Source: a virus (taxonomy: Duplodnaviria > Heunggongvirae > Uroviricota > Caudoviricetes). Taken from it: a stretch of 59,084 nt of DNA. Of this stretch, positions 19,772 through 29,648 are shown piece by piece. The DNA lies in IMG/VR virus record IMGVR_UViG_2703718809_000006. One strand, written 5' to 3'. Under the pieces are notes generated by a model that worked only from the letters and a program-made list of their open reading frames with translations, was not told the DNA's origin and did not search any database. Made by a program: the position numbers and the translations under genes. Every line of letters starts with the position of its first letter. Position 1 is the first letter of the stretch.

Positions 19772-20130
19772 GAGTTGCAGATCACATCAAACACCTTGAA
19801 AGAATTATCGAAAACGGTGAACTCTTAAGAGATCAGATGAGACGCACGGCAGAAGCCAGGGAGGCGATAATCCGCAGTCAGGCTGGTAAATTAAAGCAAT
19901 TGTCAGAGATTAACACGCTATACAAGAACAGACGTAACCGGGCGGTGATGCGGCTTCAGAAAGCACGTAATGAAATTAAATTGGTGGAGGCAAAACTGAA
20001 AAAACAGATCCAGCGTTACGATCAGCAAGATGCTTTTTATGCCGCCATCAAGGCGGCTGCTAATGAAATAGGCATCTGGAAGTTGCTGGTGGAGAAAGCA
20101 AAGACGAAGTTAAATGCCAACGAAAGCTGA
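19768..20130 (+). CDS. Coiled-coil protein
   Basis: ATGA overlap with the upstream gene; K/E/R-rich heptad-like sequence. Confidence 0.45.
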   Translation: MRVADHIKHLERIIENGELLRDQMRRTAEAREAIIRSQAGKLKQLSEINTLYKNRRNRAVMRLQKARNEIKLVEAKLKKQIQRYDQQDAFYAAIKAAANEIGIWKLLVEKAKTKLNANES

Positions 20131-20205
20131 ACTACAGGTGCCCACCAGCACATACAGAAAATGATTGTTTCCACATCAAGGAGATTTTAATGTTTCACTG
20201 AAACA

Positions 20206-20343
20206 TTAAGTAAGCCAGTGCATAATTCCATTTTTTACTGACCTTAAAAGCAAAATCAAAACGATGATGAGGATAATAGCCAGAATCTGGCTAATAATAG
20301 GCGCATCTAAAAATGCACTCAGGAACTGAAAAAAAGCGTTCAT
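20206..20343 (-). CDS. Small hydrophobic peptide (45 aa, MNAFFQFLSAFLDAPIISQILAIILIIVLILLLRSVKNGIMHWLT); candidate type I toxin-like or membrane peptide
   Basis: Minus-strand ATG-to-TAA ORF inside an otherwise ORF-poor region; stop lies in the perfect palindrome TTAATGTTTCA/CTGAAACATTAA. Confidence 0.3.
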   Translation of the reverse strand: MNAFFQFLSAFLDAPIISQILAIILIIVLILLLRSVKNGIMHWLT

Positions 20344-21205
20344 TCAGGTGGTTCCTTGTCAAATGTAAAGGTGCACTTGCTCACGTTGACGTAGAAACCC
20401 AACCCCTATATAGTTGGATTCGGTGAATGAAAGTCGTTAACGTGAGCTTACGGCACATGTTTTCGGAAAAACATCAGGGAACGGCTAATTCCTTGATGCG
20501 GGTGGGGTCTGTAATGCAGACCCTATCTATTAACGTCATGATTGCATCTCAAATTTTCTCCTTATCTTCAATTAATCTACATTCATTTCATCTGTTAGCC
20601 ACCACAATATGTAGAAAATGGCCCTCTTGCAAGTGCATAACTTTGTGGATAACTCAGGAAGGAAAAAGTGGCTTTCGCGCACCTTCGGTCAGACAAGGTG
20701 TCCGGGAAAGTCAACGCAAAGAAAAAAATTGTTAAAAATAACGTTTGTTGGAATTGTATATTTCTATCCCCTTCAATGGTTAGCATTCTATTAACATCTT
20801 TTTTTAGAGACAGAAAAACATATCGTAACAACATATATACAGTATTAAGAGGCGAGTATTATCCTGCGGTGGGAATTCTGGGTGCTGTTAGATTCGACTT
20901 TCTCAGCAGGATTACATCGTCAACTTGCGACGTTGCCGTATGACTTTCGTGTAATAGGTGACAATGATGCGGCTAGTGAGTTACTTGTGAAGTTTTTCGG
21001 AAAAGGTTTTGTGGCCTCGGATCTTGATGAGCTACAGCAACATGAAGTGTCTAATTTGATTTTTAGCCATAGCCAATAAGCCTCCCTCCTCCATCAAGGC
21101 CACAATTTGTGACCTTAAACAATTTGTTTTCTGCTTTTTCTTATTTGAGGAAATAACGTTGTTGACAGCTAATAGGCTCGTTGTTGTTATACATGCCTGT
21201 ATAGA

Positions 21206-21562
21206 TTATGACCGTAAATTATTAGCGGATTTTAAGCCATATTCACCGTTGTAGAAATTACTCATGTTCCATTCATTAGGAAGTTCTTTTCTGTCCAATG
21301 TATAGTGGCGCACGATATAACGATCTTCATCTTCTTCGATGGACAGGCGGACATAGCCAATGTGAATCACCGATACGGGCGGTGTTCGTATTGCATAGAT
21401 GTCGCGGAGATATACCGGCAGCTCGACAAATGCATCAGGTGCATCTGTGATGCTCGTTTTTTCACAGTATTCATATAACGCATCGTTGATATCGTTAAGA
21501 GATTCATGATCGTATATTTCCAGGTAATTACCGCGATCACGATGGTACTCGATTTTAGCCAT
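21206..21562 (-). CDS. Hypothetical protein
   Basis: 118-aa ORF, distal gene of the leftward two-gene unit that starts next to the LexA box. Confidence 0.45.
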   Translation of the reverse strand: MAKIEYHRDRGNYLEIYDHESLNDINDALYEYCEKTSITDAPDAFVELPVYLRDIYAIRTPPVSVIHIGYVRLSIEEDEDRYIVRHYTLDRKELPNEWNMSNFYNGEYGLKSANNLRS

Positions 21563-22147
21563 TCAAAATCCCCTGTTATCGTTTTGCATTTCTCTAATCC
21601 GGTTCAGAACTACTTCGTGCTGGACTTGGATAGCGGCTTTTTCGTTTTCAAGCCGGGCAATAGACATCTCTAATTCTTTGCTGTACCAGGCGAGCTGGGC
21701 CAGGTTCATCCGGTTGTGGTCGAGAGTTGGAGACACTTCGACGCGATCCCTTTCTTCCTGCTTTAATGAGAAGAGATTTATCTCATCCCTTGAGGAAAAT
21801 TCAGCAACAATTTCTTGTTGATGATCCGGTCGCTGCGGCATCCTCGCCAGTATAAATGGCGGTTCTTTTGAAAACATGAATGTCGGTTCAGACCGTGTTT
21901 TTACCCAGCTTGCCTGCTGTCTTTCGGCAAGTTCACAGGCTTCATCATAGTTATCTGCCAAACAAAGCACGGATGGACGGTCCCACGCCCCACCATTCAG
22001 ACAATAAACTACAATTTTCCCGTCAGGTTGTGTAACCCCATATGGATGGTCCCACCAGGCGTCCAGCTGAGCTTTAGAGCGTTTCTCGTTAGGAGTGCAG
22101 TCAAAATTTTTGGGCAATACAGGATCGAGAGGAATGCGATTAGGCAT
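21563..22147 (-). CDS. Hypothetical protein, transcribed divergently from humD
   Basis: 194-aa ORF whose start lies about 135 bp from the LexA box at 22283-22302. Confidence 0.45.
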   Translation of the reverse strand: MPNRIPLDPVLPKNFDCTPNEKRSKAQLDAWWDHPYGVTQPDGKIVVYCLNGGAWDRPSVLCLADNYDEACELAERQQASWVKTRSEPTFMFSKEPPFILARMPQRPDHQQEIVAEFSSRDEINLFSLKQEERDRVEVSPTLDHNRMNLAQLAWYSKELEMSIARLENEKAAIQVQHEVVLNRIREMQNDNRGF

Positions 22148-22282
22148 AGCTAATTCCTTATTAACTGATTGGCAACGAGGTTACGCTGATCCGTTGGTGA
22201 TGAATAGTAGCAAAGAGCACAAAATCATCAGCGGTGGTTGATGTACGTAACGCGTTTGCACCAAAGGTGTCTCTTTAATGTA

Positions 22283-22302
22283 TACTGTATAAATGAACAG
22301 TA
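22283..22302. promoter_or_regulatory. LexA (SOS) box
   Basis: TACTGTATAAATGAACAGTA fits CTGT-N8-ACAG; sits between the divergent humD and 22147 starts. Confidence 0.75.
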
Positions 22303-22321
22303 TTATTGAGGTGAAAACGCT

Positions 22322-22711
22322 ATGGGCTTCCCTTCTCCTGCGGCGGATTATGTTGAAAGCCGAATTTCTCTTGATCAGCAACTAATCAGGCATCCATCAG
22401 CAACCTACTTCATGCGGGCAGCTGATAGCCATCACCGTGAGGGAATATTGCAGGGTGCTTTGCTGGTGGTTGATTCCTCGCTTACTCCGGTTGATGGTTC
22501 TCTGCTTGTGTGCGCTATGGAGGGTGAATATCGCATAAAGAGATACAGGAAGTATCCGCGCCAGCACCTGGAGGATTTAAGCACCGGGAAGAAAGAGGCG
22601 TTACCAGTAGATGACGATGGATACACGGGCAGTAATGCTGTTTTTGGTGTGATCACTCATGTCATCAATGATGCCCGAAGTGGGGAATTTGATGATTGTC
22701 CGGTTATTTAA
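22322..22711 (+). CDS. humD: UmuD'-like SOS mutagenesis protein (HumD)
   Basis: S24 peptidase/UmuD-like core; short N-terminus consistent with a pre-processed UmuD' form; LexA box upstream. Confidence 0.8.
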   Translation: MGFPSPAADYVESRISLDQQLIRHPSATYFMRAADSHHREGILQGALLVVDSSLTPVDGSLLVCAMEGEYRIKRYRKYPRQHLEDLSTGKKEALPVDDDGYTGSNAVFGVITHVINDARSGEFDDCPVI

Positions 22712-22752
22712 GCTGCAAAGTGCTGGTGCTTTATGCCTGTGAAGTTTATAAT

Positions 22753-22775
22753 TGTGTACACATAACGAGTACACG
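22753..22775. promoter_or_regulatory. phd-doc promoter/operator palindromes
   Basis: TGTGTACACA and GAGTACAC palindromes immediately upstream of the phd start. Confidence 0.6.
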
Positions 22776-22783
22776 AGGTGTTT

Positions 22784-23005
22784 ATGCAATCCATTAACTT
22801 CCGTACCGCGCGTGGCAACCTTTCTGAAGTGCTCAACAATGTTGAAGCCGGGGAAGAGGTTGAAATCACCCGCAGAGGCCGTGAGCCAGCAGTAATTGTC
22901 AGCAAGGCTACTTTCGAAGCCTACAAAAAAGCGGCGCTGGATGCTGAATTTGCATCCCTGTTTGACACCCTGGACTCCACCAACAAGGAACTGGTTAACC
23001 GATAA
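22784..23005 (+). CDS. phd: Phd antitoxin
   Basis: 73-aa product [19 protein letters not shown]... matches P1 Phd as I recall it. Confidence 0.9.
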
Positions 23006-23385
23006 TGAGGCATATATCACCGGAAGAACTTATTGCGCTTCATGATGCGAATATAAGCCGCTACGGCGGCCTGCCGGGAATGTCTGATCCGGGTAGGGCA
23101 GAGGCCATTATCGGGAGAGTTCAGGCCAGAGTTGCCTACGAAGAGATCACCGACCTTTTCGAAGTCTCCGCCACCTACCTGGTGGCTACAGCGAGAGGGC
23201 ATATATTCAATGATGCCAATAAGCGTACCGCGCTAAACAGTGCGCTGTTATTTCTACGCCGTAACGGGGTGCAGGTATTTGATTCACCTGAACTGGCAGA
23301 CCTTACCGTAGGGGCTGCGACCGGAGAGATATCTGTATCTTCTGTCGCCGACACGTTACGTAGATTGTATGGTTCCGCAGAGTAG
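23005..23385 (+). CDS. doc: Doc toxin (Fic-fold kinase)
   Basis: 126 aa; ATGA overlap with phd; matches P1 Doc as recalled. Confidence 0.9.
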
Positions 23386-23389
23386 ATTA

Positions 23390-23569
23390 ATGGCACGTAA
23401 ATACAACAAATTGTCCCGTGAAGCGTTAAAGATGCTTCTTGATGGCGTGAGTCGCCGCGAGGTAAAGCAATACCTGGTTGGTAAGCAAATTGGTGCCAGG
23501 ACCGCTATTGCTGTGTTATGCCGTCAGGAAATGGTTGTGCTTAAACAGAGAATGCCGGGCAGCAGATAA
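23390..23569 (+). CDS. Small basic protein in the pdcA position
   Basis: ATG 5 nt after the doc stop; 59 codons. Confidence 0.4.
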   Translation: MARKYNKLSREALKMLLDGVSRREVKQYLVGKQIGARTAIAVLCRQEMVVLKQRMPGSR

Positions 23570-24641: not shown

Positions 24642-24658
24642 ATTGCTCTAATGTATTG
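24642..24658 (+). promoter_or_regulatory. C1-operator-like 17-mer upstream of lpa
   Basis: ATTGCTCTAATGTATTG, followed by a second overlapping ATTGCT repeat. Confidence 0.55.
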
Positions 24659-29575: not shown

Positions 29576-29648
29576 GATCAATTTACCTGTAAATCCATAC
29601 AGTTCAATACCTTATCAGGTCAAATAGTGATCACTTGATCATTTGATC
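29576..29648. promoter_or_regulatory. Cluster of four Dam GATC sites in the cre upstream region
   Basis: GATC at about 29576, 29629, 29637 and 29645; P1 cre promoters are Dam-sensitive (established knowledge). Confidence 0.55.

Follow-up and report, generated by a model that had tools for sequence, protein, structure and literature searches.

In a window of 59,084 nucleotides (the whole stretch of DNA analysed, IMG/VR virus record IMGVR_UViG_2703718809_000006), a LexA box lies between humD and the leftward gene pair lxr-upf93.6. We read it as the SOS operator of humD in a phage-plasmid of the P1/P7/SJ46 type, with lxr-upf93.6 under LexA control marginally or not at all, and give this reading a probability of roughly 0.6. 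The window is a P1-like phage-plasmid: across region 20100-23400 it shares 99.8% identity with Salmonella phage SJ46, 99.4% with several "Punavirus P1" isolates, and 99.1% with phage P7, while phage P1 itself aligns to 72% of the region's length. The gene order at the locus is pmgT/U/V-like genes, small upf open reading frames (ORFs), the two leftward genes, humD, phd, doc, pdcA, pdcB, and lpa. To judge from a comparison of relatives, LexA control, should it extend to lxr-upf93.6 at all, is probably no intrinsic property of lxr.

The original prediction had described the two leftward genes as unknown and had matched neither product to P1 hot or lxr. The 194-aa protein is in fact 93% identical to P1 Lxr (YP_006568, "LexA regulated function") over 189 aa and 99% identical to P7 Upf94.2, and its gene is likewise divergent from humD; it belongs to phrog_6164 (E=3.5e-135), whose function is not annotated. 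For the 118-aa protein the earlier statement stands, in that it is P7 Upf93.6 (99% identity to AAQ07573; phrog_5797, E=3.8e-77), encoded directly downstream of lxr and lacking in P1. The rightward gene is equally clear: the HumD protein matches Peptidase_S24 (PF00717, E=5.7e-9) with profile positions 8-86 aligned from residue 1, that is, with the S24 domain and without the N-terminal pre-cleavage segment, as in UmuD' and HumD, and it is 99-100% identical to the HumD proteins of P1 and P7.

The box, TACTGTATAAATGAACAGTA, differs from TACTG(TA)5CAGTA at 3 of 20 positions, all three central, and both CTGT/ACAG half-sites are perfect, so that it has the 16-bp CTGT-N8-ACAG palindrome and AT-rich spacer of an E. 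coli-type LexA operator. In the 59 kb no other site matches at three or fewer mismatches, and 100 dinucleotide shuffles yielded none. It lies 19 nt from the humD start and, leftward, 135 nt from the lxr ATG. The existence of a box between humD and the leftward pair, and its distance of about 135 bp from the leftward start, were thus borne out. The box is real and significant, and it is also the LexA site already annotated in P1 (GenBank NC_005856 / AF234172) and P7 (AF503408), where the box, the two spacings, and the flanking genes are the same; finding it is a re-discovery. The P1 record words the site as "LexA binding site in the regulatory region of lxr and humD". The CTGT-N8-ACAG core occurs three times in the window, with 0.47 expected. 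Its second occurrence, CTGTAAATCCATACAG at 29587-29602 (+), has about 6 mismatches to the 20-mer consensus, sits between a loxP-like arm (ACATTATACGAAGTTAT), about 30 nt before it, and the next small ORF, and may be a weak LexA site near lox/cra-cre; the third (52835), whose spacer is GC-rich, looks like a chance match.

Whether the operator travels with humD or with lxr can be read from about 130 loci encoding Lxr relatives, taken from viral and genome collections and from plasmids, in which the 400 bp upstream of each gene were scanned. Wherever humD is divergent to lxr the box is present, and its distance to the lxr ATG is 134-136 nt, with a single exception at 124 nt. Across more than 60 P1-like loci it takes 8 variants, which differ solely within the central spacer or at the outermost base, and the CTGT/ACAG half-sites are invariant. 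By contrast, none of the loci with lxr or its N-terminal domain (Lxr-N) but without humD has a well-matching CTG-N10-CAG box within 400 bp upstream. Among these boxless loci are P1-like elements of Salmonella and E. albertii with full-length lxr (L012, L013, L065-L069; three also with upf93.6), together with some 60 loci of short homologues. D6 and RCS47 show the opposite case: both are without lxr, yet retain aatgTATACTGTATGAATAAACAGTAtcattgagg before the humD ATG (TATACT plus box, 19 nt to the ATG), with a better upstream −35 (TTCACA, 18-nt spacer). The box is therefore conserved with humD (more than 60 loci, plus D6 and RCS47) and not with lxr, which points to an operator co-inherited with the umuD-like gene. 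The near-constant 134-136 nt between box and lxr is expected from the whole intergenic region being ~95% identical among these elements. Locus L065 has a distant S24-peptidase gene convergent to lxr, and its own CTGG-N8-ACAG box sits at the 5' end of the S24 gene, not on the lxr side.

Similar boxes occur elsewhere in these relatives. On the Salmonella plasmid NZ_CP146848 (L013, 1690-1755), which is P1-like and has lxr and no humD, a near-copy of the humD promoter and operator (TTGACC, 16-nt spacer, TATACT overlapping TACTGTATGAAAATACAGTA) drives an unrelated conserved 88-aa ORF without a Pfam match, and L066 and L067 have a similar box ~1 kb downstream of the lxr-upf93.6 pair. Other small cargo genes seem to have taken up the same SOS promoter cassette.

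Promoter predictions agree with an operator that serves humD. Candidates were scored with our own position weight matrix, calibrated on the whole window (best score per 245-bp block: median 6.4, 90th percentile 9.5); sigma-70 prediction is unreliable, a caveat that applies to every candidate, and a consensus scan found no promoter-like site in the lxr-humD intergenic region. The best plus-strand candidate is the predicted humD promoter, whose −10 overlaps the LexA box. Leftward, the best candidate scores at the background median and is thus weak; its −10 (22209-22204) is ~70 bp left of the box, so that LexA would sit near −90, and its sequence is kept in P1, L014, and L064. The two leftward candidates that do overlap the box score below the background median: TTCACC-18-TATACA, which is without T at −7, and ATAATA-18-TACATT (score 4.6). 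Overlap of the operator with a core promoter is therefore predicted for humD, and for lxr just with sub-background candidates. Judged from sequence, TTCACC-18-TATACA is the only geometry that would put lxr under LexA. A second imperfect inverted repeat, 22184-22199 / 22218-22233, flanks the extended −10 of the best leftward candidate.

In an undamaged cell, host LexA bound to 22283-22302 would cover the −10 and start region of the predicted humD promoter, and we infer that it represses humD through this occlusion; upon DNA damage, RecA-stimulated LexA cleavage would free HumD expression. HumD is reportedly a pre-processed UmuD' homologue that serves as an accessory subunit for host polymerase V. 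In the E. coli umuDC operon, a CTGT-N8-ACAG box overlaps the −10 of the promoter of a UmuD-family gene, and the humD box likewise overlaps the predicted −10 of such a gene. The two differ in that HumD is pre-truncated (UmuD'-like) with no adjacent umuC, and the phage box lies in a divergent intergenic region. On the other side of the box, lxr and upf93.6 are tightly packed, probably co-translated cargo genes within a variable cassette, and would be transcribed mainly from a promoter of their own in the 135-bp spacer. The upf93.6 ATG begins on the base right after the lxr stop codon; lxr has a Shine-Dalgarno sequence (AGGA) 8 nt ahead of its ATG, and the 118-aa ORF has a plausible one too.

Published transcript data also set lxr apart from humD. 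In P1vir RNA sequencing, log fold changes at 10 min / 30 min were 5.9 / 10.4 for lxr, 6.3 / 9.6 for hot, and 3.8 / 6.8 for humD, the last among the lowest of all P1 genes (PMC8201110 Table S1); these are fold changes relative to uninfected cells, in a lytic infection with SOS induced at 30 min, and are no more than indicative. Between 10 and 30 min of infection lxr transcripts went up 24-fold, and host SOS (recA) was also up at 30 min (PMC8201110). At 30 min the lxr transcript exceeds that of humD ~12-fold, which hardly looks like two equivalent promoters sharing one operator. In a CRISPR interference screen, lxr, hot, and humD were non-essential for P1 lytic growth (PMC10695390).

Table 1. 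Coordinates of the features at the lxr-humD locus, in positions of the window.
Feature	Position	Strand	Basis or details
upf93.6 (P7 Upf93.6), 118 aa	21206-21562	-	P7 identity; phrog_5797
lxr (P1 Lxr, P7 Upf94.2), 194 aa	21563-22147	-	P1 Lxr identity; phrog_6164
Lxr C-terminal coiled coil, aa about 140-192	21566-21772	-	
Lxr conserved N-terminal domain, aa 1-125	21773-22147	-	
Best leftward lxr promoter candidate	22204-22231	-	-35 CTGATG (22231-22226), 16-nt spacer, extended -10 TGcTACTAT (22212-22204); score 6.4
Predicted humD promoter	22256-22286	+	-35 TTGCAC (22256-22261), 19-nt spacer, -10 TATACT (22281-22286); score 8.3
LexA (SOS) box TACTGTATAAATGAACAGTA	22283-22302	.	Consensus match; LexA protein_bind feature in P7 and P1 records
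Alternative weak leftward promoter	22286-22315	-	-35 TTCACC (22315-22310), 18-nt spacer, -10 TATACA (22291-22286); score 4.4
humD, UmuD'-like protein, 129 aa	22322-22711	+	Peptidase_S24; identity to P1 and P7 HumD

Lxr itself belongs to a much wider family than its name implies. A search for close homologues recovered 125 proteins, and an exhaustive profile search 466 cluster representatives at E<=1e-3. Stand-alone Lxr-N proteins of 130-135 aa share 50-69% identity across Lxr residues 1-125 and are found in Klebsiella phage-plasmids and in plasmids or integrative and conjugative elements (ICEs) of Pseudomonas, Xanthomonas, Burkholderia, Bradyrhizobium, Mesorhizobium, and sphingomonads. From E. 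coli to Bradyrhizobium, Lxr-N identity is 50-60%, with 25 invariant residues and the motifs LDAWWDHPYG, CLNGGAWDR, and QRPD. The stand-alone proteins have the same domain and motifs as Lxr, but they are without the C-terminal coiled coil and the upstream LexA box, and their neighbours vary. The C-terminal 70 residues of Lxr are restricted to P1-like elements. Lxr is an acidic two-domain protein, a highly conserved 125-residue alpha/beta domain to which P1-like elements add a coiled coil, probably serving oligomerisation; the domain itself is distributed across plasmids, ICEs, and phage-plasmids of Alpha-, Beta-, and Gammaproteobacteria. The isoelectric point (pI) is 5.2 for the whole protein and 5.0 for the N-domain.

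An AlphaFold2 model of Lxr (predicted local distance difference test, pLDDT, 84) has two beta3-alpha units, the first with strands 36-39, 45-50, and 58-64 and helix 67-85, the second with strands 90-92, 98-102, and 112-117 and helix 120-134, followed by a 44-residue helix. Structure comparison, including against the PDB, gave no convincing match, and Pfam, NCBIfam, PADLOC, and PHROGs returned nothing for either leftward protein except unknown-function PHROGs. Lxr-N is a large, mobile-element-borne family without a Pfam model and without a recognisable fold. The beta3-alpha units and an "LG.a..yeEA" motif had raised the idea of an AP2/ERF-like fold, which was rejected on an hhalign probability of 2%, a Foldseek match to 1gcc with probability 0.28 and E=2.9, and the acidity of the domain; a Pfam scan of 35 family members likewise gave nothing recurrent and no AP2. 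An internal duplication of the two units is unsupported (1.4% probability). A beta-clamp motif, "EINLF" at residues 122-126, resembles QL[SD]LF by eye, but the segment is part of a predicted helix and is not kept in short homologues, and the idea was dropped. Longer Lxr-N homologues add a helical N-terminal module of ~55 aa, none of them has a fused enzyme domain, and one adds a PaaA2 motif. The ~55-aa module ("TAT L.A..KR.AK...R......HS.ALE..AR..GY.SWH.L") is present in many high-GC proteobacterial homologues (P0141, P0145, P0147, P0170, P0182, P0189, and others) and has sub-threshold matches to the N-terminus of Pfam Glyoxalase_8. The PaaA2 ("stability determinant") motif, in the distant homologue P0155, is above threshold (E=6e-8); a ParE-like gene was not found beside it.

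The gene neighbourhoods of Lxr-N are diverse, and short homologues are mostly solitary. In Pseudomonas and Xanthomonas plasmids the gene forms an operon with a 67-aa ORF and a resolvase, adjoining repA and Fic/VbhA; in Klebsiella phage-plasmids it has RecA/exonuclease/gp32 genes on one side and a HEPN-Toprim gene on the other, with Pol III alpha nearby; in metagenomic plasmids it ends a long series of small unknown genes; and in five alphaproteobacterial elements it directly follows TraG/VirD4 coupling-protein genes. Neighbours of the umuD/umuC type recur, namely the divergent humD of P1-like elements, the convergent S24 gene of L065, a convergent umuC in sphingomonads, and a umuC 4 kb from Lxr-N in a large Salmonella plasmid. 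By a rough estimate, such adjacency in 3-4 independent contexts of about 40 weakly exceeds expectation, and it gives a weak hint of a role for Lxr in DNA-damage tolerance. The sphingomonad case, in Sphingopyxis terrae (L097, 2932-4671) and identical sphingomonad contigs, has Lxr-N tail-to-tail, at 30 nt, with a umuC-type Y-family polymerase gene (IMS, IMS_C, DUF4113).

Upf93.6 (pI 4.8) has a narrower distribution, with 18 homologues, enterobacterial without exception. Its AlphaFold2 model (pLDDT 68, moderate) has a beta2-alpha-beta3 topology and no interpretable fold match. The lxr-upf93.6 pair recurs without humD at 58-68% identity (L066, L067, L069, L145), P1 and many relatives have lxr without upf93.6, and in Salmonella contigs with ccdAB (L141-L144) a 55% identical Upf93.6 homologue follows an 81-aa and a 320-aa protein, neither of them related to Lxr or matched in Pfam. 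Upf93.6 thus occurs behind at least two different partners, and we infer that it is an independent small acidic cargo protein.

The original prediction held that the box is shared and that both directions may be SOS-induced. Such a bidirectional operator would have back-to-back promoters (TTGCAC-19-TATACT to the right, TTCACC-18-TATACA to the left), with LexA repressing humD and lxr-upf93.6 alike and both induced by damage. The geometry allows it and the P1 annotators assumed it too, placing the site in the regulatory region of both genes and naming lxr accordingly. An 11-nt inverted repeat (GCGTTTGCACC / GGTGAAAACGC, 22252-22262 / 22310-22320, 91% complementary) flanks the box; its left arm contains the humD −35 and its right arm the humD ribosome-binding region and the −35 of the weak leftward candidate, so that both −35-like hexamers lie within it, a symmetry that would suit back-to-back promoters. 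The near-constant spacing between box and lxr in P1-like loci has also been counted in its favour, but it is expected anyway in so similar an intergenic region. The 24-fold rise of lxr transcripts while recA was up (PMC8201110) fits induction by damage, but the ~12-fold excess of lxr over humD would be hard to obtain from the weaker promoter of two, and the leftward one falls short of the background median and misses the near-invariant T at −7. The comparison of relatives also speaks against it: outside the humD context lxr homologues are never boxed, and humD keeps its box without lxr. Shared control, as far as lxr is concerned, thus seems possible but rather unlikely, and an operator belonging to humD remains the reading that we favour. 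Several points weigh against that reading. The lxr promoter that it calls for scores no better than background, by a kind of prediction that is itself unreliable; a weak leftward promoter does overlap the box, with its −35 in an inverted repeat that mirrors the −35 of humD; and the transcript values come from an SOS-induced lytic infection. For the protein, NCBI labels the family "DNA-binding protein" (we found no source for the label, and the acidic pI sits poorly with it), and adjacency to umuDC-like genes may be chance, such genes being common on plasmids.

An anti-defence, toxin, or repair role, also raised at the outset, was not confirmed for either leftward protein by PADLOC, Pfam, NCBIfam, or structure comparison, and the pair is not obligate. 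Both proteins do match P1 or P7 genes, which the original prediction had allowed as a point against itself if these were well-characterised core proteins, but neither has a known function. That lxr-upf93.6 is a two-gene toxin-antitoxin or addiction module beside phd-doc, with a DNA-binding antitoxin first and a toxin second, is very improbable. The genes abut without a gap and look translationally coupled, the pair recurs in Salmonella P1-like elements without humD, and one distant Lxr-N homologue carries the PaaA2 antitoxin motif. However, each gene is found without the other (in P1 and relatives, and in the Salmonella CcdAB plasmids), which argues against such a module; Pfam, NCBIfam, and PADLOC recognise no toxin or antitoxin domain in either protein, both proteins are acidic, and the PaaA2-bearing homologue is without a ParE neighbour in a family whose short members are mostly solitary.

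Lxr, Upf93.6, or both could also be anti-defence or establishment proteins (DNA mimics or host nuclease inhibitors), comparable to the small acidic proteins encoded in plasmid leading regions. In favour are their small size and acidity (pI 4.8-5.2), the occurrence of Lxr-N homologues in runs of small unknown genes and beside type IV secretion system coupling-protein genes on conjugative elements, the variability of the locus, a cargo hotspot in P1-like elements (PMC9603915), and the fact that lytic growth on a laboratory host does not require lxr (PMC10695390). Even so, we consider this quite unlikely: the proteins resemble no known anti-restriction or anti-defence family in Pfam or PHROGs, have no structural match, and have no PADLOC match to known anti-phage defence proteins, and the very high conservation between proteobacterial classes is easier to reconcile with a housekeeping target that is itself conserved than with a defence target, which would evolve fast. 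Our own tentative guess is that Lxr assists DNA replication or damage tolerance as a protein-binding accessory factor and is no DNA-binding regulator, because the domain is acidic and stands repeatedly beside umuD/umuC-like, hot, and replication genes. A more specific version, in which Lxr-N binds a conserved host component of replication or damage tolerance (Pol V/UmuD', RecA, the beta clamp, or the Pol III core), P1 set it beside hot and humD as a "replisome-tuning" island, and the umuD/umuC-like adjacency in Salmonella and sphingomonad elements arose independently for the same reason, is speculative and, in our view, unlikely.

The lxr label "LexA-regulated function" is 20 years old and appears to rest on proximity alone, and annotations propagated from it may mislead. 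We found no functional work on Lxr or Upf93.6 in the literature. The Lxr N-terminal domain is widespread and unusually well conserved, yet has neither a family model nor a structural relative; with hot, humD, and umuDC-like genes as neighbours, it merits functional study.

Around lxr the element itself is variable, and the hot-lxr-humD stretch is one of eight variable regions in P1-like phage-plasmids (PMC9603915). Alignment between P1 and the window is lost from ~20675 up to the 3' end of lxr, and we therefore take this to be a replaced cassette. Downstream of lxr, P1 has hot (a theta-subunit homologue on the + strand, with a late promoter), whereas this element, P7, and SJ46 have upf93.6 and a primase-fragment ORF, and P7 has an additional IS903 in the cassette. 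A late-promoter −22 element was searched for near lxr and not found. The primase-like ORF (65 aa, 20882-21079, +) aligns with the C-terminal portion of phage DNA primase families (phrog_17952, E=1.7e-37; phrog_849) and looks like a primase gene remnant within the cassette that replaces P1 hot; just past it, at about 21096-21140, is an imperfect hairpin and then a T-run. The P1 C1 operator consensus ATTGCTCTAATAAATTT has no match near lxr or humD, the nearest site in the window to lxr being Olpa at 24642. Across the window it has 11 matches where 0.23 are expected (e.g., 12859, 24642, 29380, 29463, and 45966), which fits a complete P1-type immunity circuit.

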